Source of the DNA: Eledone cirrhosa
Taxonomy: Eukaryota
Direction: 5' to 3'
Assembly: GCA_964016885.1 (NCBI GenBank)
Contig: OZ024748.1
Location: 39,928,001-39,992,000, forward strand
Length of the DNA: 64,000 nt
Shown here: positions 22,553 through 54,400 of the stretch, piece by piece
How the letters are laid out: each line of letters opens with the position of its first letter
Numbering within the stretch: the stretch's first letter is position 1
Translations under genes and position numbers: made by a program
Notes under the pieces: model-generated
The model's database searches: none
What the model saw: only the letters and a program-made list of their open reading frames with translations
Told to the model about the DNA's origin: nothing

Positions 22553-23955
<1,403 letters not shown>

Positions 23956-23987
23956 CGTGTATATATATATATGTATATATGTATATA

Positions 23988-24087
<100 letters not shown>

Positions 24088-24088
24088 C

Positions 24089-24121
<33 letters not shown>

Positions 24122-24129
24122 CATACATA

Positions 24130-24734
24130 CAGGGGTTGGACAAAATAATGGAAACACCTAGCATCATAGAATTATAATTTTGAAATATCTATAAAACCGT
24201 CAAAAGCTTGTTTATTTTTATTGTTCTCGAGGTGGTCATTAATTCTGGTAGTAATTTTGGTAGTAATTTTGGTAGTAATTTTGGTAGTAATTTTGGGAGC
24301 TGTACTTTTGTGATCCTTTCTAACAATTCGCGTAAGAGTCCGACGGTATCTATCTGAAAGTTTTGGTTTTCTTCCGGAGTTTTGTTTCGACGAGGAGGTT
24401 TTTCCCTCTTTCTCAAAGACTGTCATTACTTTCGAGACAGTACTTCTTGATACACCAAACATTTCGGCTGTTTTCGTTACACTAGCGCCTGCCATACGAG
24501 CACCAACAATTTGACCTCTTTGAAAGTCCGATAGATCTGTCATTTTAAGGAATTTTAATTACCTTTTTCTGATGATATCTGGAGAGAAACAGCAATTTTA
24601 ACAAATCATATTAAGCAACACTAATAATAAATATAAAAAAACATAAAAATAAACAATCTTTTGACGGTTTTATAGATATTTCAAAATTATGATGCTATGA
24701 TGCTAGGTGTTTCCTTTATTTTGTCCAACCCCTG
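24130..24734 (-). mobile_element. Internally deleted Tc1-family DNA transposon
   Basis: ~95-bp TIRs (CAGGGGTTGGACAAAATAA... / ...TTATTTTGTCCAACCCCTG) with TA on both sides. ORF 24172-24543 encodes a Tc1 paired-like HTH N-terminus (LSDFQRGQIVG..., SGRKPKLS); no DDE domain. Confidence 0.92.
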
Positions 24735-24777
24735 TATATATATATATATACATAATGTATAATATATATACATAATG

Positions 24778-24816
<39 letters not shown>

Positions 24817-24877
24817 GTATATATATATACATAATGTATAATATATATATATATACATAATGTATAATATATATACA

Positions 24878-25062
24878 TAATTGTTTCTACTTTTGACACA
24901 AGGCCAGCAATTACCCAGTACATTACTGGTACTTTATTTTATCGACCCCGTAAGGATGAAAGGCAAAGTGAACCTCGGCGGGATTTGAACTTAGACTATA
25001 AAGGGCCATAACTCTATGCTACAAAGCATGGTGTCCGACTCTCTGCTGATACTGCCAATCCA
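24878..25062 (-). mobile_element. tRNA-derived SINE
   Basis: Reverse complement of the family core plus head. Confidence 0.85.
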
Positions 25063-25069
25063 CATAATG

Positions 25070-25168
<99 letters not shown>

Positions 25169-25175
25169 ATGTTTA

Positions 25176-25211
<36 letters not shown>

Positions 25212-25223
25212 TTAATATAGATG

Positions 25224-25274
25224 AGATTCTACAGGACTAGAACTGTTTCATTCATAAGAAATCATCAGGAATCT
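25224..25274 (-). ncRNA. Hammerhead ribozyme-like motif (type I)
   Basis: Minus strand reads agattc-CTGATGA-tttcttatgaat-GAAA-cag..ctg-TA-gaatct: 6-bp stem I, stem III, GUA triplet. The stem II closing pair is non-canonical. Confidence 0.55.
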
Positions 25275-25579
25275 GGGTATCAAAAAATAAATATGGTATT
25301 TATAGGTCTCTACAAGTGGTAGGAGAGGGTGGGGAGTGGGATGGGTGCAGGTCATTGGTTGATAGAAAAGGGAATTCATTAAAAGCTAATTCTACAAAGC
25401 TATAATTTATTTTTATTTTTATTTATATTTATTTATGTTTTTAGAGTAACAAAGGCAGACAGAATTCTATAAACAGGTTCCGGATGGCATACCATTCCTT
25501 GTCGATAAGTTTCTCTTAAGCTAACAGGTGTCTATAAAATCAGTGGGGGGTCAGTCATGGTCGATAGAATTAAAGAAAT

Positions 25580-25650
<71 letters not shown>

Positions 25651-25654
25651 TATG

Positions 25655-25834
<180 letters not shown>

Positions 25835-25880
25835 GTGACGAAACATAAGTCAATTGCATGAACTCATAATCCTTTATTTA

Positions 25881-25934
25881 CTGCTATATATATTTCGATG
25901 ATAGCCATTGAGTGGTTATGACCTCATCAGGCAC
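25881..25934 (-). ncRNA. Minimal hammerhead ribozyme-like motif
   Basis: Minus strand reads tgc-CTGATGA-Ggtcataacca..tggctatcatC-GAAA-tatatata-gca, with a palindromic stem III. Confidence 0.6.
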
Positions 25935-26003
25935 TTAGTAAGTTCTTAGATATGCCACCTCTGTGCTTATGGTGTTGATTGTATCAGAGCCTTGGGGCAT
26001 ATC

Positions 26004-26050
<47 letters not shown>

Positions 26051-26108
26051 ACATAATGTATAATATATATATATAATGTATAGCTATACACTGTATATAT
26101 AATCATAC

Positions 26109-26162
<54 letters not shown>

Positions 26163-26164
26163 CA

Positions 26165-26313
26165 TATTCCAGCATAGCTACGTCCGTTAACGATCTTAGT
26201 TCAAATCCCGACGAGGTTGACTTTGCCTTTCATCCTTACGGGGTCGATAAAATAAAGTACCAGCAATGCACTGGGATAATTGATGGCCTTGTGCCAAAAG
26301 TAGAAACAATTAT
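26165..26313 (+). mobile_element. tRNA-derived SINE, truncated
   Basis: Family core present. Confidence 0.82.
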
Positions 26314-26327
26314 TACTATATATATAT

Positions 26328-27160
26328 ACTAGCTGAGGTACCCGGTAATACCCGGGAGCGGGAGTATTCCCAGTTCCCATTAAAATGCCCAATGCCTCTC
26401 AGACTAAAAATGAAATACAAATATACGACAGATAATCAAAAGCGAAGACAAATTCATTTACGAAACAATAATACAAACAAATATTGTTGATTACATTGGT
26501 CAGGTGAAAATATGTTCGTCAGAGAAGTTGAGTGATGCTATAAATAAACAAATAGAACCCCATTAGGGTGTCTCAATATTATTGACATTTGCTGAAATTT
26601 TGTGAATAGGTATCATATCTTGTCATTTACCTATGATTTAAATTTCATATAAATCGAAGGGAAAACATTTTCAGTGGGGGTTTTCAACGGGGTTTTGTGC
26701 CCCTAGGGACCCTTTGATTAAAATGAAATATACTTATCGAAGTACCCTGGGCAATGTAGTTTTAAAATATATATGGTTATGGGGGTCTATCTCCAAAAGC
26801 ATAGGAGGAGTTCGTGAAATCTTGTTCCATTTATTGGCCAAAATGTTCACTATAGGGGGTTTAACCCCCAATAGGGTGTCTTAATATTATTGAAATTTGC
26901 TGAATTTTTGTGAATAGGCATCATATCTTGTCATTTACCTATTGTTTAAATTTCTTATAAATCGATGGGAAAAAATTAAGCGGGGGTTTTCAGCAGAGGT
27001 TTGAACACCCGGGGAACCCTTTGATTAAAATGAAATATACGTAAGAAATCAAATGGGCATGAGCCCCCACACACGTGTCAAGCTACATCAAGATCCGTTT
27101 GTTAGTTTTTGAGTTTTAGGTTCACAAACAAACAAACAGAGAGAAATTGCCATTTATATA
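26328..27160 (-). mobile_element. Non-autonomous Helitron-like element
   Basis: Minus-strand 3' end: CCCGG-gtatta-CCGGG hairpin shortly upstream of CTAG|T. Internal ~300-bp-period tandem duplication. Partial copy at ~37630-37880. Confidence 0.65.
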
Positions 27161-27184
27161 TTTATATATATATATATATATATA

Positions 27185-28270
27185 TCTATATATACTATAA
27201 AGCTAACGGCCGTATGTATGTAACAAACTTTTCGCCAAACGGCTGGACCAAACAGCACCAAATTTGCACTATAGATGTAACTTTTTCCAAGTAAAAAGGT
27301 GAGGGTATTTTTGTCTACTGAATTTTGTTAAAAGATTAAAGACATTATTTAAATATTCACTTCTTTAAAATTTCAAATGTCAACACTTCCTGTTATACGA
27401 CATTCCTCACTTTTTTTCGTCGCACAACATTCCCCTCTTTTTCTTAGTCTGTCTTTTTAGATAGATATAGGGCTATAACGTAGCGTCTTTATAATATGTC
27501 TCTGTATGTCTGGCTGTCTGTATTAGATAACGTTTTTCGAAATATTTACTTCTGGGTTCACAGATTGATTTTTTTTAGTTTCAGAAGTTAAGGGTGAAAG
27601 CCTTTGCTTAAACATTGTTATTTTAATATATATATTCGTGTACAGATATTTTGCATACACAAAAACAAAAACCTATTTATTTCACTAAAGCACAGACGGC
27701 TTATCGTCATTGTTACTGTTCGAGGTTAGAGGACCACAGTCTTTCCAAGATCTGAGAACCATCAATAGCCATCAATGTTCCACTTACCGTTTGGCTTGCC
27801 AGATGCGTGGTTTGTTACACGATGACACCTATTGGCACCTCACCCTGCAAGAAGCAGCAACTGCTAAAGTCCCTTCTCAGCTGCGAAAACCTTTTGCTAT
27901 TATGCTGCACAACTGTGATCTCGCCACCCCGAAAGTCTAGTTGAAGACATCCTCCACCGCACACGCAGATACAATCCGAGCGTAACATACGATGTCGTTT
28001 TCAATGAGGCGCTCATCTGTCTTGAAAACAGTGTCCTGGAGATTGGTGGTAGGCTTCTGAGTCACTACAGCTTACCTACTCCTGACAGGAGTGTCCTGAG
28101 GTCAATGTCTACAGAGCTTCTCCGCGAGACGAGCTACGAGATCAGTGCTTCTCCAGTGGTCAATTGTATGTAGGATGCTCTAGGGTGAGCTCGCCAAACA
28201 ATCTCTTCATCTTTGCTCCGGAGGGCCGAACAAAAGATATTGTAAACTCTGAGGCTCTAACAATGTAATT
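27185..28270 (+). mobile_element. Helitron remnant with deleted Rep/Helicase coding pieces
   Basis: Starts with TC. ORF 27710-27940 LLFEVRGPQSFQDLRT...TYRLACQMRGLLHDD...LQEAA...PSQLR is a characteristic RepHel linker. A QLYVGCSR-like helicase C-terminal motif lies near 28160-28185. Confidence 0.8.
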
Positions 28271-29149
28271 TAAATATTTTCTGTTACTTGGAATTTTCAT
28301 TTTGGTTGTACAAATTATTGTTTGTTAAAAAATGTGTTCTCTGTTCAGCCTTTATTGTTGTAACTCTCAATTATCTTTAACGTACTGGCTGCTGAACTGG
28401 GGAATCCTAAAACTATTCAAACCCAACAATCATTTGGATAGTGAAAGAAAAAGAGAAAAATTTCAAATCTTTTATGAGGGATATGCAAATGAAGTAGAAG
28501 GGTAGACTGAAAATATCGTTATATTTAGACGCCAGGTACATTTAAATAATTATTAGGATACTTTATAAAAGAAGATGAAGCAGAAGAAGGAAGAAAGATA
28601 GGCTCATATTATTATTAGGGTGCAAGTAGATTTAAAAATTTAAAATGTGTTGAAGTGGTAGAATACTAAACCAAAAAGTGTTCAATATATAACCAAATCA
28701 TGAGTTATAATATATATATAATGTATATAATTATATTTTAAGGAATTAAGGTTGTAGGTACACTTTAGCTTATTATATTGCAACCAGTCAATTTAGCTTA
28801 TTATATTGAAACCAGTCAAATTAGCTTATTATATGGAAACCAGTCAATTTAGCTTATTATATTGCAACCAGTCATTATATACATATTTATATAAATAGAT
28901 AAAAATATATACATGCTGTTATTAATTCAAATATAATTTAAGGGTTACGAAGGATATGTGTTTACATTTTCAATATATAGTTAAGAAAAAAAAGTCCAAG
29001 ATGGCACGGATGGGGTGGTCAGGAAGGAGACGTCCATACCATAATGCCAATGTAAGACAGTAGCTATTGTCATTTTATCGTGTCAGTTGATATTACGTTA
29101 AATATAATTCCGGTTTTATCTGTGATTTACTGATATAGCTTACGTCAAT

Positions 29150-29555
29150 TGTTTCTTCTTCGTCCAGTTATTTCTGAGAGGGTCGTGGGGTCAGAGTCCT
29201 CCAACACTCCTTCCAGCAAGTCATGTCAGAAGCAACCGTTTCCAACTGATCCGGCTGGATCTCCCAAGCATGACCAGCCAAGCTCATGGATCTTAGCAAA
29301 CCATCTTACTCAGGGTGGGTCGATCCCTGGGTTTCTTGTCGGTTTGTTTTGCCCGTAAAATCTGTCCGGTGATTCTTTCCTGAGACAATCTAACCACATG
29401 TCCATAGTATCAGAGCTGTGATCTCTCAATTCGGAGAAGTAGCGGCTCTACCTGGAGTAACTCTCTGATCTCAGAACTACGCACTCTATCGAGTAACATT
29501 ACTCCAAAGACCCTTTAGAGGAATCCCATTTCGGCCGCTTGTATTGTTTCTATTT
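29150..29555 (-). mobile_element. RTE-clade LINE 3' fragment
   Basis: Homologous to the fragments at 32830-33630 and 38770-39010 (GR.R..W, W....L..LP.RP terminus). Confidence 0.6.
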
Positions 29556-29609
29556 ACGAAATAACACAACTGAGGATTTTAATAGTGTCAAATTTTCGTT
29601 TCTTTTCAG

Positions 29610-31107
29610 TTCCGACTTTATCGAACCATTTAAAATACATATTGTAGAGAACATAAAGATCAATAACCGTAACGACAGATTAATTGCTCTCGAGAAAGCT
29701 GACTACAACATCTTTAAATTACAACCTGAAGATGTCATGATCGATTTCCTTACAGATGCTGGCACTAATGCTTTCAGTCTTGAACAAAACGCAAGAATAT
29801 GGATGGGTGATGAAAGTTATGCCGGATCTACTAGTTATGAAACTTTGAAAGACACGGCAACATATATTTCTGGTTTTGAAAACATTCTGCCAGTTTTTTC
29901 TGAATGTATCAGCGAAGAGATTGTCGCTTCTTATTTCACAAAAGCTGGAGATAAGGTTATTGGGAATACTTTTACTTATTCACTTGAGAACCATATAAAG
30001 GATCTTCATGCTGAAGCGATTTCTTTGTTAGATTGGTCAGATAATAATTTTGCAGGAAATCTAGATGTTCAAGCACTCAAAAACTTATTGGCAGAAAATG
30101 ATAAAAAATCAATTTCCTTTCTTATAATGAATGTACCAGCAAAAAGTAGTGGTGGCCAACCAGTTAGTATGTCAAACATGAAAGCAGTTTCTGATCTCTG
30201 TCGCGAACATTCGATTCCGATATACATCGAAAGTAGTATGTATGGTGAGAACTGTTGGCTCAATAAAATGTACGAAGAGGCTTACTTCAATAAATCGTTA
30301 GTTGAGATATCGCAAGAAATGTTTTCTTTTTTCGATGGCTGCATTATTTCTGCTAAAAGAGATGGTAGAAGTGAGATTGGAAGTGTCATTTGTCTTCAAG
30401 ACAAAGAAATGACTCGAAAATTGGGCACTGTTATTACTCTTAAAGCAGGTTTCATAACTTATGGTGGGATGGCTGGCCGAGATATGGAAATGGTAGCGGT
30501 TGGCATGCGAGGTGCTTTGGATGAACAACTGCAAGACTATCGACAAAAACAATTGGCATTTTTCAAAAGATCCCTGAAGGAATTTGGTGTTCCGATTGTG
30601 GAGCCAGTCGGTTGTAATACCATCTTCATTGATGCTGAAAATGCTTTTCCTAACTGTAAACACGCGTTTTATCCAGCCTGGTCTTTATCTTGTGCTGTTT
30701 ATATCGTCGGGGGTATCCGATGCGCAGAGTTTGGTCAAGTTACTCGTCCAACAAGCAGCTTACCCACTAATCATTTTCTGAAAGACCGAGAATTACTAAA
30801 GCTTGAGATACCTCGTTTCATCTATACGACTTGTCACATTTTCTATGTTGCCTATGTTTTCGCTCAGCTTATTTCACATGAAATGCTTTCTGGAATGAAA
30901 CTTATTGCCTGCTCCGAAGACCAAATAAAACTCGTGAAAATAAAAATGAAACCAAATCATTCTCTGGAATATGACGATATCCAACTCCTTCCGGTACAAG
31001 ACTGTGAACACATTCACTTCTTTAAAAACATATCTAATCAAAGAGTTATGAAAAGAAATTCAATCGCCGAGGCATCTTCTATATGGTCAGTCGACATTCC
31101 TTCTTAA
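29610..31107 (+). CDS. Exon A: tryptophanase/tyrosine phenol-lyase-family domain, predicted PLP-less, retaining the trans-acting Tyr motif
   Basis: Uninterrupted ~1.5-kb ORF with EPFKI, IDFLTDAGT, GDESYAGS, GGQPVS, GFITYGGMAGRDME, GGIRCAEFG and IPR..YT. Polypyrimidine-AG acceptor (ttttcgtttcttttcag) ends at 29609. No ATG start: the ORF-track start at 29539 is a TTG inside an RTE relic. SAKKD is replaced by SAKRD. Possible donor at 31086. Confidence 0.85.
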
Positions 31108-31301
31108 AAAGGGGACAAACACGTTAGATAATGTAATCGTAGACACAAAAAAGACGTGGTAGTCATGATTGGAACGTCCCTGATCATAGAATTGCTCTGT
31201 CAATGTTCACCTGAACTTAAACAACAGCAACAACAACACAGAGATTTTTTTTGTTGCACCCAAACAGGATTCTGTAAATTCTAGATTGTACATTCTTTTA
31301 T

Positions 31302-31442
31302 TCTTTTACTGGTTTCAGTCATTAGACTGTGGCCATGCTGGGGCACTGTTCTTTTACTGGTTTCAGTCATTAGACTGTGGCCATGCTGGGACAGTGGTCT
31401 TTTACTGGATTCAGTGATTCTACTGTGGCCATGCTAGGGCAC
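31302..31442. repeat. ~48-bp tandem repeat x3 (CTTTTACTGGTTTCAGTCATTAGACTGTGGCCATGCTGGG...)
   Basis: Visible tandem units. Confidence 0.8.
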
Positions 31443-31640
31443 CAATTGATTGTTAGTTTGTTTTTTTTAATTGGTTTTATTCCCAACAATTAAACTATTG
31501 AACATGATTTTGAATAGAAAGTAGGGGAAAACATTGACAGTCTTGTCAAATATAGTTTTAATATTATGTTAACAAAAAAAGGAAATAAAATATCTTTGGA
31601 AACTTAAATATATTTCTTGTGATGTTCTTTTTACAATTAT

Positions 31641-31922
31641 TTCACCAATATATAATTAATATCAAACATTGTGATGTATGTTTCACCAATATATAATTAA
31701 TAACAAACATTGTGATGTATGTTACACCAATATATAATTAATATCAAACATTGTGATGTATGTTACACCAATATATAATTAATATCAAACATTGTGATGT
31801 ATGTTACACCAATATATAATTAATATCAAACATTGTGATGTATGTTTCACCAATATATAATTAATATGAAACATTGTGATGTATGTTTCACCAATATATA
31901 ATTAATATGAAACATTGTGATG
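31641..31922. repeat. 41-bp minisatellite x~7
   Basis: Unit TTCACCAATATATAATTAATATCAAACATTGTGATGTATGT. Confidence 0.9.
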
Positions 31923-32829
31923 TGGTTGTGATAATTCGGGGAAAGATGGTACAACGAATATTAGATAAACTAAGGTGAAAAGATACGACAAATCAGCATT
32001 TTAAACTTTTGTCTTATATTTCTTGATATTTTGAGGTGAAAAACTTTTTTCAAAAGAAAGAAATGGAGTCTGGTGTTGTCAACGCCCAAAGAATTGTTGA
32101 TAAACGATTTATTTACATCAACTTATTATTGATGGTGACATGCTTTTGTTTCACTTTAAAAAAATATTATAATAAGGTGACATACTAATATAAATATTAT
32201 TTTAAAAATAAAAAACAAATCTTGAAACATCTTATGACTGTGGCAGTGGCAAGGTTTATAGAGTTAAGAAGCCTCACAACCATCTGATTTCCGGTTCCTT
32301 TAGACTACATGGCATCTTAAAGAAGTGTCTTTCTGCCATAGGTTCGAGTCAACAAAACGGACAGTTTGCCCTTTTCAGCTTGGCGGGCAGCAGGGCCTGG
32401 ACTGGTGGTGGAATGCACCAGGTTGGTACTTGCAATTAATTGTAATATAACTGATAGATGTTGTTTCAATTCTGTGCCATTAATTGTAGATCAACGACAA
32501 CATTGTTGCAGTAGTTATTTCAATTCTGTGCCATTAATAATCTGTGTTACGAACACTACATAAATAGTCTACAGGTGTTACCTTGATTTCACCAGATGGA
32601 AATATCAAAATCAAAATTGATTATGTAATTGTTCCAAACAATATTCTCGAAATGGTGAAAAACTGCCATGTGTATATTTCTACAGATATTGGTCTAGAAT
32701 ATTTCAACTTAGAGACTGGAAAACACAAACGTTATTATCATAAATGTACTGTGATTGTGTAAGGCTTAATTATTAAAGATTGTAAGATCCATTCCCAGTG
32801 AATTGGTCAAACTATATCCAAGAATTTTC

Positions 32830-33630
32830 TTTTTCTTCCTTCACTTATTCCTGGGAAGGTCGTGGGGGAAGAGTCTTGAAACACTCCTTCTAGCAGGTCC
32901 TGTCAGAAGCAACCATCTCCAACTGATTTGGCTGGATCCCCAAGCGATACCTGCCAAGCTTATGGATGTTATCCAACTATCTTGCTCAGGGTCTACTCCT
33001 GGGTCTCCTGCTGGTTGGTTTTGCCAATAAAATCTGTCCAGTATTTCCTTGGACATTCTAGCCATATAATATGTAATATCAGAGCTATGATTTCTCAATT
33101 CGGAAAAGTATCAGTTCTACCAGGTGTGATTCACAAGTCTCCAAGCTACACACACTATCGAGTAATGATACTCCAAATACCCTTTTGGAGGAACCCCATT
33201 TTGGCCACTTGTATTTGCGATTGTATTCTTTCAGTCATTACACAAGATTCATGACCATAGGTAAGGGTTGGCACGAAAACCGAATTGAAGATAGTGAGTT
33301 TGGTGTTTACACCTACCTCCCTTCTTCTGATTACCAAATACCAAAGCTGTCACATTACTGCGGCAGCTCCTGCAATTATTGCACTTAATTCGGCCTCCTG
33401 CCTTCCATCACTCGTGACCATGGCCCTGAGATACTTGAACTTCTCTACCAACTTCAGTAGAACTCCCTTCGCATGTAGAATGCACTGCGCAGGCTTCCTT
33501 TAGAAGACGAGTGTCTCAGTTTTCACAGCACTGAATTTCATTCCAGCCATGCATCACTCTGCATCAAACCTATCAAGTGCAAGTCAGAGATCACCTTTTG
33601 TTGAGTTTGTAACACCATGTTGTCTGCAAA
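32830..33630 (-). mobile_element. RTE-clade LINE 3' portion (degenerate)
   Basis: KFKYLR, TKLTIFNSVFVPTLTYGHES, ..QVAKMGFL motifs on the minus strand. Confidence 0.75.
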
Positions 33631-33721
33631 TTCCAGCCACAAATTGCTGGCCATGTGCCTAAATTAGAAAACCTTATTCCTGCAAAAGGTCCTGTTAATC
33701 CTTAATTATTATTAAATATAG

Positions 33722-33976
33722 CATATATACAAACTGGAGCTGTGTCAGGGACCAGTCCGCAAACATATATACAAACTGGAGCTGTGTCAGGGACCAGCCT
33801 GCAAACATATATACAAACTGGAGCTGTGTCAGGGACCAGTCCGCAAACATATATACAAACTGGAGCTGTGTAAGGGACCAGTCCACAAACATATATATAA
33901 ACTGGAGCTGTGTCAGGGTCCAGTCCGCAAAAATATATACAAACTGGAGCTGTGTCAGTGACAATGTCTGCAAACA
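33722..33976. repeat. 42-bp minisatellite x~6
   Basis: Unit CATATATACAAACTGGAGCTGTGTCAGGGACCAGTCCGCAAA. Confidence 0.9.
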
Positions 33977-34301
33977 ATGAGTTGAAAATTTTAACACCAA
34001 GAAATATATGATAAATAAAAACTACAGTTAACAGATTTTTGTGTTTTGAATTACTAAAGTGACACGTGTACAATGTAATTGGTATATATATATATACTCT
34101 CTCTATATGTATGTGTTTTTATATAAATATGTAAATATTTGTGTGTATATATATATATATTGTTGTTATATAGTAAGGTGTATTATTGGTTGTGTCATAC
34201 GGTCCAATAAACTTTTGTTAGCAATATTAAGTTCTCCACGCTTTTGTATATCTCCAATTCCATTTAAGGGAACAGCTAGATGATGTAAAACGGAGTATTT
34301 G

Positions 34302-35881
34302 TATCAAAATAAAGATCCGAAAGCATGGTATAAATTTCCAATCATTTTAATCACAACACGTTTCAATAAGGGATAGATCGATCGTGTGGTCATGATCGAT
34401 TATCACTGATTTCATCATTCTTAACTGAGCGTGTAATACGTCTATTTACTAACTGAGAGAACTCTATGGTTAGGGTATTCTAAACCTTCCTCAGGATTTT
34501 TGGAAAGTAACCTACCACTAACTGCCCCCTTTTTACCTTAGCCATAGAGTTCTCTCAATTAGCAAAAAATAGACAATCACACACTCAGGTAGTAGACAGC
34601 TAAGATCGTTTGCGCACCTACACACTGTACTCGGTGTGTTTCCACAGAGTTCTCACAGCTGAGTGCATATTTACCATTACTTTAGAATACCTAGTTAGTA
34701 AATAGTTAGAACAATTACACTCGCAGTTAAGACCGATTACGCGCATTCACCATTACTTTAGAATACCCTAACCATAGAGTTCTCTCAGTTAGTAAATAGA
34801 CGTATTACACACTCAGTTAAGAACGTTACGCTCTTTATACATAATTCTACACAGTACCCGGTTTCTTTAGACACAGAGTTGCCACAGTTATGACCAGTCA
34901 TGATCTTGTCGATTGAATACTACACTAGGTTTTGGTCTGTGATCCTCTAACCAAGGAGTGCTCACAGTTTGCTGAATGGACAATACTACTTACACGCCAT
35001 CAATGGACTTACACACATCCCCGGGGTTTTATTTTATTTTGTGTTGGGTAACACACCTCCACCACTCAAACACTTATCTTAAAGGCCCGAGGGAAAACGC
35101 ACACACTGACACCTTAACTCAAATACCCAACCCTACATGGAGCCCCTTGTTGGCCTACATGGCAGGTGCTTGCACGCACAGACTCGGGGACCCAGATTCT
35201 CAACGGGACAACGGCACATATAGAGTTCGATACGAGCTGACTACTTGCTCTACACATGGATTTGTATATACCAAAACATACACTATTTAGACGATACAGA
35301 TGTTACAATTCAATCGATACACGTATAGCAGAACGTTGAAGGGAATTTACTTGCGTGTGTATAGTGTTGTGGTTGACCCAATTTTTTTCTAATTTACATC
35401 GTGAAAATTGAGATTTGACCAATATAACGTTTGTTGTTTTGTAACCTAACTTTTGGTGCATACTGTGTTGCTGTGTATATTTTTTTTTCTCTGACCTCGC
35501 GTCGGTGTGTGTGAGTGTGTGTGCACTCAATAACACTAATTGTGACGGACCAAAATTCTACAGATCTGGTGCTGAGATTAGACCTGTCCAGCGTCTTTTA
35601 CAGCTATTGAGAGATAGAGACTTGATAGATTTATGACCCTGACTGAAGACAATAGCAGTTGGCGTGTTTTGGCTGCTGATTATTCATATGGGGAACAAAA
35701 CTCCAGTGAGTGAACATCGTTAGTTTTTCCTCCCTCATATCAAAGATTTCAAGACATTTCATTATTCACCTGAGATCAGTGATAATCGATCATGACCACA
35801 CGATCGATCCCTTATTGAAACATGTGTCGTGATTAAAATGATTGGAAATGTATACCATGCCTTCGGATCTTTATTTTGATA
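34302..35881. mobile_element. Non-autonomous TIR element (MITE-like, ~1.6 kb) between exons A and B
   Basis: ~110-bp inverted termini TATCAAAATAAAGATCCGAA... (34302-34413) / ...TTCGGATCTTTATTTTGATA (35770-35881). A further internal inverted pair lies at ~34418-34485 / ~34757-34823. Confidence 0.75.
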
Positions 35882-35918
35882 TATATATATAAAACTGAAT
35901 TTACATTTTTTTTTCCAG

Positions 35919-37308
35919 TCTCCAAGCAATGGAACCTTACAGGATTAAGGTATTTTATCCAGTCAATTTAATCCCCAAGTCTGACCGTATTGCATGTCTA
36001 AAAGCTGCCAACTACAACCCCTTTCTACTTAAATCGAAAGACATATTTATAGATTTGCTAACAGATTCTGGTACAGGAAGTCAAAGCAGTGCCCAGTGGT
36101 CGGCTATGACTAAAGCCGGCTATTCAACTATTAATTCCGAATACGTTAAGGAATTTGTACGTACAATTCAACACATTACCAATTTCAAACATGTATTTCC
36201 AGTTCATCAAGGTCGAGGAGCCGAAGGTTTGTTGGCAAAACTCCTACTGAATAAAGAGAGTGTTGTACTGAGTAATTCTCTCTTTGACACAACACGAGCA
36301 CACGTTGAGTCATCTGGTGCAATTGGAATAGATTTGGCAACAAAGTCTTCAAAATTCTTAGGTGATGCCGATGTGGAAAAATTTGAAGAAACACTGGATG
36401 AATATGGTTCTAGAGTTCATCTTGTAATAATAACCTGCACCAATAATGTGGTAGCCGGAGCTCCTGTGAGCATGCAAAATATAGAAATCATAACAAAATT
36501 ATGTCGAAACAAGAATATCCCAGTTATAATGGACGCATGCCGTTTTGTTGAAAATGCTTATTTTATCAAGACCTTAGACGAAAAATATTCTAAACACACA
36601 ATCTTAGATATTGCCAGCGAAATGTTTTCTTATTTTGATGGTGCAACTATGTCTTTAAAGAAAGATGGTATGAGCAATGAAGGTGGGTTTATAGCTTTCA
36701 ACAACGACAAATGGGCCACCAAAATATTTGACATAATCGAATATAAAAGTGGTTATTCAACTTACGGGGGAATAACTGGATCAAATCTTGTAGCATGTAC
36801 TGTCGGAATTTCTGAGGCTATGAACGAAAATTACCTCCGATCAAGAATCTATCAGGCTAAATTACTGGCTGATTTCTTGGAAGATAATAATATTCCCGTA
36901 TTTAAACCAGTAGGGGCCCATGCCGTCTACGTGAAAGCAAACAAAGTCTTGCCACACCTTGATTTCTTGAAGTATCCAGCATGGTCCCTTAATTGTGCCG
37001 TATATATCGATGGTGGTATTCGATGTGCAGAAATTGGCAATATAATGTTTGGTGAAAATTCAGATGGAACAAAACAAATTCATCCCTTTGAATATGTGCG
37101 TTTGGCTTTACCCAGAAGAACCTATACGGTCAACCATCTGCATTTTGTGGCCAAAACTTTTGGTTTTGTTGCCAAAAAAGCCCATTTAATCCACGGAATG
37201 GAAATTGTCAAATCTTCGCATCTCCTAAGACATTTCACAATTTGGATGAGACCATTAAATGAATACCACCTTGAAAAGAATAATAATCAGAAAAAAATAA
37301 ACTGTTGA
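35919..37308 (+). CDS. tnaA: Exon B: tryptophanase (tryptophan indole-lyase)-like domain with intact PLP site but no GDExY motif
   Basis: MEPYRIK, IDLLTDSGT, HQGRGAE, SNSLFDTT, MDACRFVENA, MSLKKDG (PLP Lys codon 36661-36663), TYGG, GAHAVY, GIRCAEIG, VRLALPRRTY, LRHFT. FDTT, EIG and LRHF are the TnaA-type rather than TPL-type (FTTT, ERG, LRFF) residues. Acceptor tttttttttccag ends at 35918; an in-frame ATG is at 35929. Confidence 0.9.
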
Positions 37309-43619: not shown

Positions 43620-46600
43620 AAAAGACAGCGAGAAGCGAAAACCAACCAAACAGTGAGTGTGTTCTGTTATTAATTCTGGCAATATTACGCAAATATGACC
43701 CTCCCCAAATATAACAATATCTGTTTCGACACACGATTTCATATAAAAAACCTCGCAAAACTAATTCATCGCCGCTATGGCATTAGCTTGTGCCAAGCTG
43801 AAAGGTTATTGAAAGACACTGTTTTCTGTTATATAAAAACTACAATAACAACAGAACAAATCCGCTTCTTAAAACACTGTTTCCTCCAAAACATACACAA
43901 CAAACATATCAAAACAAGTAAATAATTTATTATTGAACAAAACACAAGCTGAACGGCTAAAACACACAATAACAGTTAATATGAAAAGAACAACATACAC
44001 AAAAGTCAACGCACTCTACAGACAAAAACGCGTCAACGGTAAGGAAATCCGAAATCTCATCACAGCAAACGAGAGAGATGACTTCATGAGCGTCATCCGA
44101 CGCGAAACGAAATATGCTCAAAACGAATGCTGTAGGCATTTCAAGAAGAAATTAGAATGGATGAATAAGAAAAAACTACAAGAAAGGAAAATCGAATATT
44201 CTCAAAAATACCCAGATAACATCGACAACATCCGTATGAGTGATGTAAAACTACCGGAAGAATTTACCAATGACCACACAGTAAATGGGAACACTTTAAT
44301 CAGTGAACAAGAACAACAAATCCTAAAGTTACCACCAAAATTTGCCATCTACAAAAAGATTAACCCTATGGAATGCAAAACGGAGCTGGAAAAGTGTTTC
44401 ACAAAAATACGTTGGAATGCAAAGGTAAACAACAACAACAATAATAACGGTAGTAGTAATATAAACAATAACTCTGGGTATAGAAATAACAGCCATAACC
44501 ATAACAATGGCAGGAAAGTGAGAAATAGTGATAATGGCAATAATACTAGCGATAGACAGAACAACAACAACCACAATAATAATAATAATAGAAACGTTAA
44601 CCACAGACACAGCAACAGTGACCACAGTAGTAATAACGGTAACAATACGAACAACAACAACAACAATAACCACAGTGGTAATAATGGAAATAGTACATGT
44701 AGCAACATCAACAAAAACAAGAAATATAATAATAGTAACAACCACAATGGTAGAAATAGCAGTAACAACAACAATAACGGTGAAGTAAACAACAATACAT
44801 CTAGCAACCATAACAATAATAATATTAATGCTAATGATAGAAACAACAACAACCACCATGATAACAATAATAGCAACACACACAACTATGACGATAGAAA
44901 TAACGACAACCCCTTAGAGAAACTATTCTTCAACCCAGCTGACAAAACATATAAGATGGGTAATATCTATCCTACGAGGTTACCCTTTAATAAAAGAGTT
45001 TGCATACCACAGCAAATAGATGACGAGACGGAGGCACAGTTCACCATAGCTAGAAATAAGATTAGACAAGTAGTAGACAGGTACACTATGAGACAGAGCA
45101 GACCAGAGGCCCAACAACTTGGGATAAAACCTGTAGAAGGCTTGGTTAGCCTCAAGCAGCGCACAAGGGATGGTGAGGTAGTGTGTCTACCCACAGATAA
45201 GTCTGGTAGGATGTCAATAGATAGCATGACGAACTACATCGAGGCAATGCAACCCCACATCACCAACACGAGCGAAGTTGCACAACTAACACACGATGGG
45301 AGAGAAAAAATCCTCAACGCTCACATGATGATGTGGACTGACATCCTAAAGCCAAGCAGACGCACTGCCAACAACTTCCAGGCGTCTAACAATGGCATAC
45401 CACCCTTGTATGGGCTCCGCAAAGACCACAAGACAGTCGACGACCCGACAACAGGACCACCAACAAGACCCGTATGCGGAGCTAATATAGCTAGCAACTA
45501 CAGGATCTCCTACTTCCTCTCAATGGTTATACGCCCCATAATCAAGATGTCCCCAGATGTATGTGAAAGTACAGAGGACCTCCTCAGCAGAATCAGTGAG
45601 TGCAACAAAAACAGGAGCCTATCCAACTGCATAATAGGCAGCATGGATGTGGTGTCACTGTACCCATCCATTAACATTGATTTTGCTGTGAAAAGATGTG
45701 TGGAGATGATCATTGAGAGTGAGGTGGAGTTCTGCGACGTCGACACAGACGAACTGGGCCTCCTACATAGACTTACCTACGACACTGACTACCTAGACAG
45801 CCATGACCTTAGATGTTTCTGCCCTAGTAGACCTATAAGAGGTAGACCCCCCACCATAACCTCAATGGCTAAAAAGACTCCCATAGGAAGGTGGATTGGG
45901 TGGACCAAAGCTATACGGACCCCCCAAAACACTGATCAGGTAAGAAAAATGGTCGCACATGCAATAGGGGCTAGTATCAAAACTACCCTAAAGGGCCACA
46001 TATTTAAGTTCAATGAGAAAATCTACACCCAAAATGAGGGAGCAGCCATCGGCGTCAGCATAGCTGGTGATGTTGCCAACCTTTTCATGGTATGGTGGGA
46101 AAGGAGACTTAAAGATCTCCTTAATGAAAGCTCCATAGACCTCATCATGTTCTCTCGTTATGTAGACGATATCAATATAGTTATAAGAACACCCCCACTA
46201 GAGAGCACTAACAAGTTTGATTTAGAACGTAGCACGATGGAAAGCATCCAGCAGATAGCTAATTCCATACACCAGAGTATAACTGTAACTATAGACTTCC
46301 CTTCCAAACACCCTAACAATAGACTACCTGTATTAGACACAGAACTCTGGATTAACACTATAGACGAGAGAGCCCAAATTCTCCACTCACACTATGCTAA
46401 ACCCATGGCCTCCAAATACCTGATACTCAAAAACTCAGCAATGTCCAGTAGTGCTAAGTTTAATATTCTGATCGCAGATTTGGTACGAGTGATGAAGAAT
46501 GTGTCCAGCATGTGCGACCCAACAGAAATGGAAGGACACATCCAACACTTCATCAACCGCATGCAGTTCTCTGGCTACAACCAAAGAGACAGAGTCAGAG

Positions 46601-48165
46601 TATACGAAGGAGCCATGGAAAAGTATAAGACCCTCATAGAACTGGACATGAAAGGAATTTGCCCACTATACAGGAGCAAATCATGGAATAGCTTAGATAG
46701 GGCTAGACATAAGATAGGGAAGGCCACATCATGGTACGACAACCAGAGATATCAGAGTGTCATGTTTGTGGACGCCACCCCTGGAGGGAAATTAGCTAAC
46801 CAGCGTAGAAAGGCCCTGAGAAAGACCCACTTAAAAATAAAGGTGGTAGAAAAGCCAGGAACCACCATAAATTCCCTGATCAGCAAAACCTTCCCTTTTA
46901 AGAAAACCCACTGTACCAATAGGAAATGTATCATTTGTAAGGTGAACCCCCGGATAAACTGTAAAACTAGAAACGTAGTCTATAGCATAAGATGTACAGA
47001 GGGTACTTGCAGAAACATGACAACAACATACATAGGTGAGACAGCTCGTAGCATAGGTGAAAGGATAGACCAACACTGGAGGGAACTAAAAGGACGAAAA
47101 AACGGGTCAGTACTATACGAACATGCTAGACAACAACATGACGGTAACATAGACAACATAGAAATTAGAATAATATCTAAACATAGGAATGACCCAGCAG
47201 ATAGGCAAATCAGAGAGGCCAGTGAAATAGAAATTAGAAGACCAAAGCTAAACAGAAAGAATGAGTGGAACAACAACAACACCCAAACAAACAACACTGA
47301 CCTAAGAGAAGTATAAATAAGTAAATAAAATTAAATAAAATAAGATAAATAAATACATACACAAGCACATAAACACACACTAGTCACCCAGCAGACACAA
47401 CACTATACACACTAGTCACACATCACACATAACACTATACACACACGCAAACGCATGCGCAAAGAAGACAAAATAAAATAAGATAAACAAACAAGCAAAT
47501 AAATAAATAAATATATAGACAGACTGAACAAAAAAAATGGCGTAGACATACAACACAACAGGAGGAACAATGAATATAACACCACTGACGATGTTGCAGA
47601 TGTGCAACGAAAGATTTATGTAAATTATGTAAACTATATATATGTGTTTGTGTCTATATTGTATCTGTATTATTTTTGACCGCCGGTCAGTCAATGGCAA
47701 CATTGAGGACCGAGTAAGTTAGATCGCAGATTTATATATATAAAAGACAGCGAGAAGCGAAAACCAACCAAACAGTGAGTGTGTTCTGTTATTAATTCTG
47801 GCAATATTACGCAAATATGACCCTCCCCAAATATAACAATATATATATATACATATATATATATACACATATATATAATTTCGAAAAAAATATTGAAAAG
47901 AAGATTTTCTTACAGATCGGAGAAGTCCATGGCTGTTTCTTGTCGGTTTGGCAGATGTTTCGTAGAATTGATGTGATTTATGGTATATCACCTCCCACGT
48001 AAATCTCTTACTTGTCGATCGTGGAATAATTATGTCCTAGATAGATAGCGTGTGTGTGTCTGTCTGTATGTATGTATGTATTGAGGCAGAAAGAAAGAGA
48101 GAGAGGCGATAGAAAAGGGAGGGTTTACGTAACAGTGTAGGATATAGAGAAGGCAATTTTAATAA
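43620..48165 (+). mobile_element. Penelope-like retroelement, near intact, with terminal direct repeat (pseudo-LTR)
   Basis: Direct repeat ~43620-43715 / ~47742-47840 flanks the RT-GIY-YIG ORF. The downstream sequence is shared with the truncated copy at 22.5-23.9 kb. Confidence 0.9.
43933..47316 (+). CDS. Penelope-like reverse transcriptase + GIY-YIG endonuclease (1127 aa open) with a long Asn-rich insert
   Basis: PTDKSG, LYGLRKDHK, PTRPV, MDVVSLYPSI, GAAIG, RYVDD, LPVLD; Cys linker CTNRKCIIC (Neptune/Nematis-like); VVYSIRC...YIGETAR..ER..H, R..RE, LN. The N-terminus probably extended into ORF 43695-43925 and is now interrupted. Confidence 0.92.
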   Translation: MNKTQAERLKHTITVNMKRTTYTKVNALYRQKRVNGKEIRNLITANERDDFMSVIRRETKYAQNECCRHFKKKLEWMNKKKLQERKIEYSQKYPDNIDNIRMSDVKLPEEFTNDHTVNGNTLISEQEQQILKLPPKFAIYKKINPMECKTELEKCFTKIRWNAKVNNNNNNNGSSNINNNSGYRNNSHNHNNGRKVRNSDNGNNTSDRQNNNNHNNNNNRNVNHRHSNSDHSSNNGNNTNNNNNNNHSGNNGNSTCSNINKNKKYNNSNNHNGRNSSNNNNNGEVNNNTSSNHNNNNINANDRNNNNHHDNNNSNTHNYDDRNNDNPLEKLFFNPADKTYKMGNIYPTRLPFNKRVCIPQQIDDETEAQFTIARNKIRQVVDRYTMRQSRPEAQQLGIKPVEGLVSLKQRTRDGEVVCLPTDKSGRMSIDSMTNYIEAMQPHITNTSEVAQLTHDGREKILNAHMMMWTDILKPSRRTANNFQASNNGIPPLYGLRKDHKTVDDPTTGPPTRPVCGANIASNYRISYFLSMVIRPIIKMSPDVCESTEDLLSRISECNKNRSLSNCIIGSMDVVSLYPSINIDFAVKRCVEMIIESEVEFCDVDTDELGLLHRLTYDTDYLDSHDLRCFCPSRPIRGRPPTITSMAKKTPIGRWIGWTKAIRTPQNTDQVRKMVAHAIGASIKTTLKGHIFKFNEKIYTQNEGAAIGVSIAGDVANLFMVWWERRLKDLLNESSIDLIMFSRYVDDINIVIRTPPLESTNKFDLERSTMESIQQIANSIHQSITVTIDFPSKHPNNRLPVLDTELWINTIDERAQILHSHYAKPMASKYLILKNSAMSSSAKFNILIADLVRVMKNVSSMCDPTEMEGHIQHFINRMQFSGYNQRDRVRVYEGAMEKYKTLIELDMKGICPLYRSKSWNSLDRARHKIGKATSWYDNQRYQSVMFVDATPGGKLANQRRKALRKTHLKIKVVEKPGTTINSLISKTFPFKKTHCTNRKCIICKVNPRINCKTRNVVYSIRCTEGTCRNMTTTYIGETARSIGERIDQHWRELKGRKNGSVLYEHARQQHDGNIDNIEIRIISKHRNDPADRQIREASEIEIRRPKLNRKNEWNNNNTQTNNTDLREV

Positions 48166-49899: not shown

Positions 49900-50183
49900 T
49901 ATTTATTCGTTCACAGAATACATAAAAAATTTTTTTTTAATATTTCATGTTTATTAAGATTGTTATACTAATCGAAACTCATTATAATAAATGTAACAAT
50001 TATAAAATTATTCCTTCCGTCGGATTAAAGAAAAAATAATCATTAAGTATTCATCGTCGTCGTCGTCATCATCGTCATCGTCATCTATATATATAATAGA
50101 AAAAATGAGGAAGTTTCATTTACATATGAAAATATATATAAATAGGGATAGAGAGAGGTATGTAGATAGATAGAGAAACACAT

Positions 50184-50215
<32 letters not shown>

Positions 50216-50394
50216 TACTAAGACAAAATACAGGTCTGTACCAGCAAGACATGGTCTCCTGACCCAAGTTATCTCATAACGCAACAAGCCATCTAACATC
50301 CAACACATGCATGTGTGGAAAATGGACCTTAAATGATGATGATTGTAATGATGACACACACAGACACACAATTTAACATCTGTCTTATGAAAAC

Positions 50395-50861
50395 ATGTTA
50401 AAGGGTTAGTATGCAATCACTTTGATGTCTTTGAAATGCACAAAACAGGATTATATAATTTTGTTATTAAAATAATATATGTTATTTCTCTGAGGAACTG
50501 GAATCATATGATTCCAGTTCCTCTAAGAGAAATAACAACCCAACCAGGAACTGGGCATATCGGAGTATTGACAGAGTTAAACACCTCAACAACATGTGTA
50601 CCCGTCTCTACCACACCAATTCGGTCTGCCTGAAGAGGTCACAGCCAAAGATGGCTGTCACCAAAATATATATAGCAGTACACCGTTAATAAACGAAGCC
50701 AAATTTTAAATATTTGACTAATTTATTTTGTTTATATATATATATATATATATATTACAAAGAAGAGAGACGGTTTTATGTATACATGCTCTGTTTATTA
50801 TATAATCCTGATTTGTGCATTTCAAAGACATCAAAGTCATTGCATAATAACCCTTTAACAT
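50395..50861. repeat. ~65-bp inverted repeat pair enclosing a mutated hammerhead-like motif (50626-50678)
   Basis: ATGTTAAAGGGTTA..CAGGATTATATAAT / ATTATATAATCCTG..TAACCCTTTAACAT. Inside: ctgc-CTGAAGA-Ggtcacagcca..tggctgtcacC-AAAA-tatatata-gcag (GAAA changed to AAAA). Confidence 0.7.
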
Positions 50862-51437
50862 ATATATATATATATATAGATATATATATATAGATATATA
50901 TATATATATATATAATGAACCAGTTGTCCAAGGGAGTTAATTTATTTCAGGTAAGATATCATAGTTAGTTTGGACCAAGCCGTTACTATCAAACATGTGA
51001 TCAAAATCATATTCATAGTTGGGAGAAAAGTCTTCTAAATTCAGATCCGCAATGCTGAAAAGTATGGAAGGAAAACACAGAAAAAAGACAAATCAATGTT
51101 TATGAAGGAACAAGAAAATAAGAGAGGCAAGTTAAAACAATTATATTTCAAAGACTCAATGTATAGTCATGACACAAGTATTATAACGGGGAATTGGTAG
51201 ACATTTTAACTCTTAACGCCTGTTTTACATGAAACCACATTAGTAAGACACTCTTGAAAAGTTCAAAACAAGACTATGACTGCATCATATTAAGTATTCA
51301 AGTCTTTAGTTTACAGCAAATTTTCACAACAGTGTGTCCAATTGTAAAGGCACTATAAACGTTAGAATAAACAAACCAGTCTTTAGATATTTTCTATTGA
51401 AGAATTGCAAGATGTTAAGAGTTCAATGTCAGCTTAA

Positions 51438-54400
51438 TTCATTACCATATTTCTCACAAAAGACACTGTATGTCATTAACCCTTTCATTGCCATATTTCT
51501 AATGAAAGACAAAGTCTATGTCATTAACCCTTTCATTACCATATTTCTAATGAAAGACACTGTCTATGTCATTAACCCTTTCATTACCATATTTCTAATG
51601 AAAGACAGTCTATGTCATTAACCCTTTCATTACCATATTTCTAATGAAAGACACTGTCTATGTCATTAACCCTTTCATTACCATATTTCTAATGAAAGAC
51701 AGTCTATGTCATTAAACCTTTCATTACCATATTTCTAATGAAAGACACTGTCTATATCATTAACCCTTTCATTACCATATTTCTAATGAAAGACACTGTC
51801 TATGCAATTAACCCTTTCATTAACATATTTCTCACAAAAGACACTGTCTATGTCATTAACCCTTTCATTACCATATTTCTAATGAAAGACATTGTCTATG
51901 TCAATAACACATTCATTACCATATTTCTAATGAAAGACACTGCCTATGTCATTAACACTTTCATTACCATATTTCTAATGTAAGACACTGTCTGTCATTA
52001 ACCCTGTCATTACTATATTTCTAATGAAAGACACTGCCTATGTCATTAACCCTTTATTATCATATTTCTAATGAAAGACACTGTCTATGTCATTAACCTT
52101 TTATTATCATATTTCTAATGAAAGACACTGTCTATGTCATTAACCCTTTATTATCATATTTCTAATGAAAGACACTGTCTATGTCATTAACTCTTTAATT
52201 ACCATATTTCTAATGAAAGACACTGTCTATGTCATTAACCCTGTCATTACCATATTTCTAATAAAAGTCACTGTCTATTTCATTAACCCTTTCATTACCA
52301 TATTTCTAATGAAAGACACTGCCTATGTCATTAACCATTTCATTACCATATTTCTAAAGAAAGTCACTGTCATGTGATTAACCCTGTCATTACCATATTT
52401 CTAATGAAAGTCACTGTCTATGTCATTAACCCTTTCATTACCATATTACTAATGAAAGTCACTGTCTATGTCATTAACCCTTTCATTACCATATTTCTAA
52501 TGAAAGATACTGTCTATGTCATTAACCCTTTCATTACCATATTTCTAATGAAAGTCACTGTCTATGTCATTAACCCTTTCATTACCATATTTCTAATGAA
52601 AGACACTGTCTATGCAATTAACCCTTTCATTAACATATTTCTCACAAAAGCCACTGTTTATGTCATTGACCATTTCATTACCATATTTCTAATGAAAGAC
52701 ATTGTCTATGTCAATAACACATTCATTACCATATTTCTAATGAAAGACACTGCCTATGTCATTAACACTTTCATTACCATATTTCTAATGTAAGACACTG
52801 TCTGTCATTAACCCTCTCATTACTATATTTCTAAAGAAAGACACTGCCTATGTCATTAACCCTTTCATTACCATATTTCTAATGAAAGACACTGTCTATG
52901 TCATTAACCCTTTATTATCATATTTCTAATGAAAGACACTGTCTATGTTATTAACCCTTTATTATCATATTTCTAATGAAAGACACTGTCTATGTCATTA
53001 ACCCTTTCATTAACATATTTCTCACAAATGACACTGCCTATGTCCATATTACCATATTTCTAATGAAAGACACTGCCTATGTCATTAACCCTTTCATTAC
53101 CATATTTCTAATGAAAGACACTGCCTATGTCATTAACCCTTTATTATCATATTTCTAATGAAAGACACTGTCTATGTCATTAACCCTTTATTATCATATT
53201 TCTAATGAAAGACACTGTCTATGTCATTAACCCTTTCATTAACATATTTCTCACAAAAGACACAGCCTATGTCCATATTACCATATTTCTAATGAAAGAC
53301 GCTGTCTATTTCATTAACCCTTTCATTACCATATTTCTAATGAAAGACACTGCCAATGTCATTAACTTTTTCATTACCATATTTCTGACACTGTCTATTT
53401 CATTAACCCTTTCATTACCATATTTCTAATGAAAGACACTGTCTATGTCATTATCCCTTTCATTACCATATTTCTAATGAAAGACACTGTCTATTTCATT
53501 AACCCTTTCATTACCATATTTCTAATGAAAGACACTGTCTATTTCATTAACCCTTTCATTACCATATTTCTAATGAAAGACACTGTCTATTTCATTAACC
53601 CTTTCATTACCATATTTCTAATGAAAGACACTGTCTATTTCATTAACCCTTTCATTACCATATTTCTAATGAAAGACACTGTCTATTTCATTAACCCTTT
53701 CATTACCATATTTCTAATGAAAGACACTGTCTATGTCATTAACCCTAATGAAAGTCACTGTCTATCTCATTAACCCTTTCATTACCATATTTCTAATGAA
53801 AGACACTGTCTATGCAATTAACCCTTTCATTAACATATTTCTCACAAAAGACACTGTCTATGTCATTAACCCTTTCATGACGATATTTCTAATGAAAGAC
53901 ATTGTCTATGTCAATAACACATTCATTACCATATTTCTAATGAAAGACACATCCTATGTCATTAACACTTTCATTACCATATTTCTAATGTAAGACACTG
54001 TCTGTCATTAACCCTGTCATTACTATATTTCTAATGAAAGACACTGCCTATGTCATTAACCCTTTCATTACCATATTTCTAATGGAAGACACTGTCTATG
54101 TCATTAACCCTTTATTATCATATTTCTAATGAAAGACACTGTCTATGTCATTAACCCTTTATTATCATATTTCTAATGAAAGACACTGTCTATGTCATTA
54201 ACCCTTTATTATCATATTTCTAATGAAAGACACTGTCTATGTCATTAACTCTTTAATTACCATATTTCTAATGAAAGACACTGTCTATGTCATTAACCCT
54301 GTCATTACCATATTTCTAATGAAAGACACTGCCAAAGTCATTAACTCTTTCATTACCATATTTCTGACACTGTCTATGTCATTAACCCTTTCATTACCAT

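Follow-up and report, generated by a model that had tools for sequence, protein, structure and literature searches.

A putative split-site tryptophan indole-lyase probably encoded by alternative last exons of one gene in the octopod Eledone cirrhosa

The window analysed here is a stretch of 64,000 nucleotides from the octopod Eledone cirrhosa (assembly GCA_964016885.1, contig OZ024748.1, positions 39,928,001 to 39,992,000, forward strand); coordinates refer to the window unless the contig is named. It contains two tryptophanase-like coding exons, A and B, which together probably encode a split-site tryptophan indole-lyase (TIL) working as an A:B heteromer, the octopod copy of a cephalopod system. 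Judged from sequence, we give this reading a probability of about 0.87. In the proposed mechanism, the exon of an intact animal tryptophanase would have been duplicated in tandem within one gene, which would make subunit A or B by splicing a common leader to either last exon. From their residues, B would bind pyridoxal phosphate (PLP) and substrate but could not lend its partner the catalytic tyrosine, and A would lend Tyr74, Glu72 and Tyr307 but could not bind PLP. By analogy with solved structures, Tyr74 of A would enter the PLP site of B in an A:B dimer, giving one complete site and leaving the second dead. The enzyme, probably an A2B2 tetramer with two working sites, would split L-tryptophan into indole, pyruvate and ammonia, as Asp137 and His463 of B suggest. 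The cassette appears to have multiplied recently to about ten copies in this genome, some already decaying.

The core claim of a complementary heteromer is very probably not new, having already been published for cephalopods, and the A/B pair is very probably the TIL-alpha/TIL-beta heteromer of Yuasa 2023. That work reportedly describes two cephalopod TIL paralogues with disruptive substitutions, which are inactive singly (neither subunit alone had TIL activity) and on co-expression form a weakly active heterotetramer with alpha/beta dimers, for which a low tryptophan-cleaving activity is said to have been measured. A and B likewise show orthology to two Octopus paralogues and complementary disruptive substitutions. 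However, the present locus belongs to a different octopod, carries about ten cassettes and has a 24-residue tail on A; it is most likely a new, amplified member of the described cephalopod system. Outside subscription journals, a literature search yielded nothing published on the shared exon, on the amplification or on the fusions in bacteria discussed below, and Yuasa 2023 may mention the gene layout. Octopus tnaA is named in the accessible part of a distribution survey (PMC8537960).

Lent and resident residues of the shared active site

Residues are numbered after E. coli TnaA (from NC_000913.3), to which A and B were aligned; the two are 31% identical to each other. A retains E72, Y74, F304, Y307 and GG. 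Its GDESY motif (29806-29820, +) holds the equivalents of E72 and of the catalytic Y74 (Tyr TAT, 29818-29820), predicted to be lent in trans, and its ITYGG loop (30454-30468, +) holds the Y307 equivalent, expected to contact the PLP phosphate of the partner. Glu72 binds a monovalent cation across the subunit interface. A also carries the substitutions S54A, Q101S, G102E, R103C, F136T, D137Y, N198K, D227E, R230M, K270R and R419K and has lost RHF; the change of the Schiff-base Lys270 to Arg lies in its SAKRD motif (30349-30363, +; Arg AGA, 30358-30360) and is found in 8/8 A-type rows. B retains S54, Q101, G102, R103, F136, D137, N198, D227, R230, K270, R419 and RHF, and carries E72Y and Y74T. 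In B, AGYST (36115-36129, +; Tyr TAT, 36121-36123) replaces GDEAY, accompanied by FDTT (36283-36294, +; F136/D137, the Asp being the tryptophan-type indole-binding residue), SLKKD with the PLP-binding Lys270 equivalent (36652-36666, +) and the tryptophan-type RHF (37228-37236, +; H463/F464). A, B, E. coli TnaA and the chiton enzyme all have a spacing of 43 residues between DS/AGT and HQG/FSE. The initial annotation of this DNA had named three of these codons (29818-29820, 30358-30360 and 36121-36123), an identical 43-residue spacing between DSGT and HQG, and complementary losses in A and B. All of its coordinates check, both frames are open, the spacing is confirmed, and the alignment to E. 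coli TnaA bears out the losses, whose pattern recurs in 8/8 A-type and 10/10 B-type rows.

According to the accessible text of PMC2770544, Tyr74 and Tyr307 hydrogen-bond the PLP phosphate of the neighbouring subunit, and the activity of Y74F is negligible. For the Proteus vulgaris enzyme, the available part of PMC11301627 describes Tyr72* as contributed by chain B, and Thr50, Ser52, Arg101, Phe132, Asp133, Asn194, Asp223, Ser263 and Lys266 as acting in cis, likewise Arg414, His458 and Phe459. From this subunit origin, the residues that are lent would belong to A and the resident ones to B. The shared-site logic proposed earlier, with Tyr74 and Tyr307 lent by the neighbour and the PLP lysine and others in cis, fits these structures as far as the two sources describe them (PMC2770544, PMC11301627), and the interpretation of A:B complementation is supported at sequence level.

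Both proteins match solved tyrosine phenol-lyase (TPL) and TnaA structures along their length (E about 1e-85 for A and 1e-99 for B). They pass the cut-off of 285 bits of NF009709, the NCBIfam tryptophanase subfamily (A 398, B 493), and fall below the cut-offs of the equivalogs TIGR02617/NF053783 (826/750 bits; A 279/329, B 348/389). Neither A nor B has Lys270 and Tyr74 in one chain, as a canonical homomeric tryptophanase does, and the PLP-bearing B has the tryptophan-type residues Asp137 and His463, with FDTT and RHF present. In TPL, Thr124 and Arg381 bind the phenol hydroxyl, according to the part of the literature available; alignments to TPL place Asp, Ile and His of B at Thr124, Arg381 and Phe448. 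The presence of Asp137 and His463 in B, and the absence of the TPL residues Thr124 and Arg381, points to tryptophan, not tyrosine, as substrate. TPL specificity was considered for B and rejected on the Asp/Ile/His set and on its TIGR02618 (TPL) score of 382 bits, below the cut-off of 721.

The AlphaFold2 model of A has a mean predicted local distance difference test (pLDDT) score of 89.3, dropping below 50 in the last 38 residues. It matches TPL chains with template-modelling (TM) scores of 0.84-0.85 by query length and 0.91-0.94 by target length, and also matches TnaA chains; as modelled, A is still predicted to fold as a complete TnaA/TPL subunit. B was assigned to fold type I from its sequence only. 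The fold, shared site and residue set of bacterial TnaA (EC 4.1.99.1; E. coli, and P. vulgaris PDB 1AX4) and TPL (EC 4.1.99.2; PDB 2EZ1) match A and B taken together, but the bacterial enzymes are homotetramers with four complete sites, whereas in E. cirrhosa neither chain has the full set.

Complementation across this site has an engineered counterpart: Phillips 2002 reportedly found that hybrid dimers of H463F and Y74F E. coli TIL regain activity. As proposed for A and B, two inactive subunits complement each other across a shared site in these hybrids; however, they are a laboratory mix of point mutants and not a natural obligate pair. Serine palmitoyltransferase LCB1/LCB2 is a fold type I PLP heterodimer with the PLP lysine on one subunit only, as in A/B, although it belongs to a different family with a different reaction and is encoded by two separate genes. 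The A/B enzyme would be a clean natural case of the passage from a homo-oligomer to an obligate hetero-oligomer via complementary loss across a shared active site, to which the locus adds a layout of one gene with two last exons that would couple the subunits.

A probable shared leader, two last exons and an amplified cassette

The coding part of the putative shared first exon (22814-22830, +; ATG to CT, encoding MDFSD plus 2 bases) was located by a leader pattern search, for which 0.06 chance matches were expected, and joined to each last exon by script. Its start codon lies in the context gccATGG, and a GTAAGA donor in phase 2 follows directly 3'. The element CATAAATA at 22762-22769, about 45 bases 5' of the leader ATG, is a possible TATA-like box. 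The intron to exon A (22831-29609, +) consists of TA repeats and transposon debris and ends in the acceptor TTTCTTTTCAG at 29609. Terminal exon A (29610-31107, +) would encode the tyrosine-donor subunit without the PLP lysine (504 residues including the leader) and is followed by a candidate polyadenylation signal, a consensus AATAAA (31584-31589, +), as expected for a terminal exon. Terminal exon B (35919-37308, +) would encode the PLP-bearing subunit without the catalytic Tyr74 and Glu72 (468 residues including the leader).

Exons A and B both start at polypyrimidine-AG acceptors of equal phase, and A terminates in a stop codon, which argues that they are exons and not domains of one open reading frame. 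The joined products, MDFSDL-SDFIEP for A and MDFSDL-LQAMEP for B, are both open, and their starts are identical to those of isoforms X1 and X2 of O. bimaculoides. In RefSeq the A and B proteins are annotated as isoforms X1/X2 in O. bimaculoides (XP_014791032/033, consecutive accessions) and O. sinensis (XP_036366181/XP_029647098), and the MDFSDL start is common to the isoforms of both species. On this sequence evidence, the best reading of A and B is therefore that they are alternative last exons belonging to a single gene, a layout given by sequence, frames and the RefSeq models of two Octopus species, which we infer for E. cirrhosa. One further A-type protein, P0331, has an N-terminus unlike that of its B-type counterparts, so that the shared leader is documented only for Octopus and the E. 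cirrhosa genome. Four read runs over exon A behave as DNA, with repeat depth in the millions, and are uninformative on splicing; one 1726-base contig assembled from these DNA-like runs crosses the exon A acceptor without a joint. The initial annotation had proposed an obligate hetero- or pseudo-dimer. Its split is conserved in all relatives found, but the usual products would be separate chains from alternative last exons and not a fused pseudo-dimer.

The genome measures 3.0 Gb, and the window sits on a contig of 60.6 Mb. Over about 1 Mb of that contig (contig positions 39121573-40131927) there are at least 10 full A exons, 9 of them open, and at least 9 B exons, 6 of them open, together with at least six forward leaders, at least three inverted leaders and at least two inverted partial A exons. 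In every unit with both exons, A is found upstream of B, at a distance of about 5-6.5 kb. Five units are complete, with a leader, an open A and an open B; four lack a leader match over the 9.9 kb upstream, and no B was found within 9.9 kb of one A. The copies are more than 99% identical, and lesions comprise one frameshifted A, two frameshifted B exons and one B with a nonsense codon. They carry shared derived changes, which argues for real recent duplication, and differ in spacing and lesions; some may be uncollapsed haplotypes. The recent amplification suggests a demand for indole production or tryptophan removal in this octopod. In two units, L026 and L027, about 208 bp of the leader-upstream region is present and the leader itself is gone; B is frameshifted in both, and an inverted leader and partial A lie nearby.

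Conservation in relatives and independent bacterial fusions

Homologue searches returned orthologues from Octopus bimaculoides, O. sinensis, O. vulgaris, Argonauta hians and further records. E72, Y74 and Y307 are retained in 8/8 A-type rows, to which N198K, D227E, R230M, K270R and R419K are common. R103 and H463 are each retained in 7/8 and lost only in E. cirrhosa. Of the losses first listed for A, those of the HQGRGAE Arg (R103) and the LRHF His (H463) are accordingly specific to this species. Among B-type rows, E72 and Y74 are lost and K270, D227, R230, N198, QGR and FD retained in 10/10, with R419 and H463 retained in 9/9 of those reaching these positions. Y307 is Y in E. cirrhosa and F in 5/10 B-type rows, which fits a B loop facing a dead site. 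The Tyr at 36121-36123, raised in the initial annotation as a possible substitute in B, is Y in 1/10 B-type rows and H, F or V in the rest, arguing against that role. Compared with O. bimaculoides, A is 75% and B 82% identical; the identity of A is 72-77% with closer orthologues and falls to 43-44% with distant ones, with frames open. P0331, found by profile search, is a ninth A-type protein; of the 150 representatives listed, 100 were single-domain, and among these it alone keeps the Tyr and lacks the Lys. Of the other representatives, 73 have both Tyr and Lys, 17 have Lys without Tyr, 5 have neither and 4 are gapped.

Trees were quick trees with support from the Shimodaira-Hasegawa-like approximate likelihood ratio test (SH-aLRT) only. 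A and B form clades with their Octopus members (100 each) that are together sister to the intact chiton enzymes, the A+B sister grouping being supported by only 80 and 87. The tree places the duplication before the split of the octopod group from a more distant group. Two chiton (Liolophura) tryptophanases (P0129, P0479) and one from the horsehair worm Gordionus (P0341), all of which have either both Tyr and Lys or motifs that are near-intact, cluster with the cephalopod pair (99), which suggests that this tryptophanase lineage is old in animals. Bacterial contamination was rejected, given the phase-matched introns, the 60.6 Mb contig, the Octopus and Argonauta orthologues and the clade with the chiton. 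Some B-type proteins (P0006, P0249, P0250) have altered C-terminal motifs (VPNR, RHL) and are possibly further diverging paralogues. In Argonauta hians three adjacent gene models (P0123, P0007, P0253) hold a partial B, a truncated B joined to A, and a full B, which suggests a tandem array there too; the 847-residue model of truncated B plus A was rejected as proof of fusion, as it resembles an automatic gene model within such an array.

A similar division occurs within single bacterial proteins. In two-domain TPL-like proteins such as Polyangiaceae HNS97079.1 and Bacteroidales MCD6367132.1, the N half has E72, Y74 and Y307 without the Lys and the C half the reverse, so that the halves are ordered like A and then B. 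Searching for longer homologues yielded 50 matches, and domains were mapped on 53 long proteins, of which 33 were retained once a duplicate and 19 proteins with only one TnaA domain had been removed; the 33 include P0329, which is without a TnaA N half, and two cluster mates. Their N halves keep E72 in 32, Y74 in 31, Y307 in 30 and K270 in 3; the C halves keep K270, D227 and R419 in all 33, Y74 in 6 and Y307 in 2. One such fusion folds with a predicted TM score (pTM) of 0.93. The bacterial fusions are one polypeptide each, probably unlike A and B, and their C halves differ in carrying the TPL-type residues YFTTT and mostly RFF. At the present locus A ends in a stop and the RefSeq isoforms are separate, with a candidate donor in the A tail.

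In the trees A and B fall with those animal enzymes that are intact (SH-aLRT 99) and away from the bacterial fusions, and approximately unbiased (AU) tests reject grouping A with the N halves (p=4e-5) and B with the C halves (p=6e-45), indicating that the bacterial split is of independent origin. Over 124 family-invariant columns and using 17 fusions, the losses of A overlap those of the N halves (27/42, p=0.0005), and the overlap of B losses with C-half losses is not significant (7/26, p=0.07). With two independent origins, cephalopod and bacterial, it can be tested whether splits of this kind take a common path. Three bacterial two-domain proteins (P0281, P0294, P0296) still have the PLP Lys in both halves and look like early stages of a split. 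In Streptomyces and Micromonospora, tryptophanase domains occur in fusions with PF04820, a flavin-dependent tryptophan-halogenase-type domain, or with PF11991 (P0299, P0300, P0304; P0306-P0324); PF11991 is named a DMATS-type prenyltransferase by one source.

Competing explanations and the extended tail of A

Several observations weigh against an obligate A:B enzyme made by one gene. Of the 124 family-invariant columns, 42 are lost in A, and over all of them the losses of A and B are no more mutually exclusive than expected by chance, with 10 lost in both (Fisher p=0.64); the A/B reciprocity is confined to mechanistic sites. The 17 of 100 representatives with Lys and without Tyr74 imply that a partner is not necessarily required by a B-like chain. 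Exon B has its own in-frame Met three codons in, and another first exon could serve it. The ratio of non-synonymous to synonymous substitution (dN/dS) among paralogues is 0.55 for A (p=0.09) and 0.75 for B (p=0.41), neither significantly below 1, as computed on 7/9 other A and 6/8 other B copies with indel-bearing copies omitted.

B might instead act chiefly as a homomer that handles good-leaving-group substrates (S-alkyl-cysteines, cysteine conjugates, serine), with A as a switch or regulator that adds tryptophan cleavage where co-expressed, so that exon choice would set the substrate range. The Lys-keeping, Tyr-less representatives agree with this, as does the Y307 or F of B. TIL and TPL also cleave S-alkyl-cysteines, and in the accessible part of PMC11301627 D133A and H458A lose tryptophan activity and keep activity on good leaving groups; moreover, replacement of Tyr71 affects substrates differently (PMC3870968). 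However, A retains exactly the trans-acting residues in all relatives, and B retains the tryptophan-specific Asp137 and His463, which the same source suggests are unneeded for good-leaving-group substrates (PMC11301627). Yuasa 2023 reportedly saw no TIL activity from either subunit by itself, which also counts against this reading. We consider such a homomeric role improbable beside the A:B split-site enzyme.

The last 24 residues of A in E. cirrhosa (31033-31107) extend past the stop position of its relatives in Octopus and Argonauta, and ATA TCT AAT in this tail may reflect a 2-base insertion before the old TAA. The tail contains a candidate phase-2 splice donor, ATG/GTCAGT (31083-31091, +), that would splice in frame to exon B and may be there by chance. 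It is the sole one of 11 phase-2 GT sites in exon A to match 5/7 consensus positions, and its junction to exon B gives an open frame of 960 residues. A composite proposal can be built on this: one animal gene would encode both halves of an obligate split-site enzyme by means of its alternative last exons, splicing would set subunit ratio and activity, the cassette would be present about tenfold, and the loss of A's stop would open a single-chain A-B route convergent in architecture and domain order with the bacterial TPL fusions. Taken as a whole we regard this as very improbable. The narrower idea is a long shot: some transcripts in this lineage would join the tail donor to exon B, and the product would be a single-chain pseudo-dimer of 960 residues, resembling the bacterial fusions. 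The lost stop, the position of the only 5/7-consensus site in the new tail with its open join, and an A-then-B order that is also that of the bacterial fusions, one of which folds with the high pTM given above, speak for it; yet donor-like sites are found roughly twice in each kb, so that one would be expected in this phase in about 5% of 72-nt tails, the site was noticed post hoc, A retains a stop and the downstream AATAAA, and the tail resembles plain read-through into a 3' untranslated region.

A pseudogene reading, with A as a duplicate in decay and the array as largely an assembly artefact, can be set aside as next to impossible: A has indeed lost a third or so of the family-invariant columns (42/124) and the >99% identical copies include broken ones, but in all relatives found, even at 43% identity, A-type proteins stay open with unchanged motifs, and the array copies combine shared derived changes with different spacing and lesions. 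This protein conservation already implies that dN/dS of A between species is far below 1.

Elsewhere in the window, an inverted orphan copy of the leader with its upstream region lies at 47912-47930 (-), and no A or B exon was found behind it. It is adjoined by an open retroelement-like frame of 1147 residues (43873-47316, +), presumably of Penelope type, with a YVDD reverse-transcriptase motif, a C-terminal YIGET nuclease-like motif and an Asn-rich insert. The stretch from 50000 to 64000 is a long AT-rich satellite with a strong negative GC skew.

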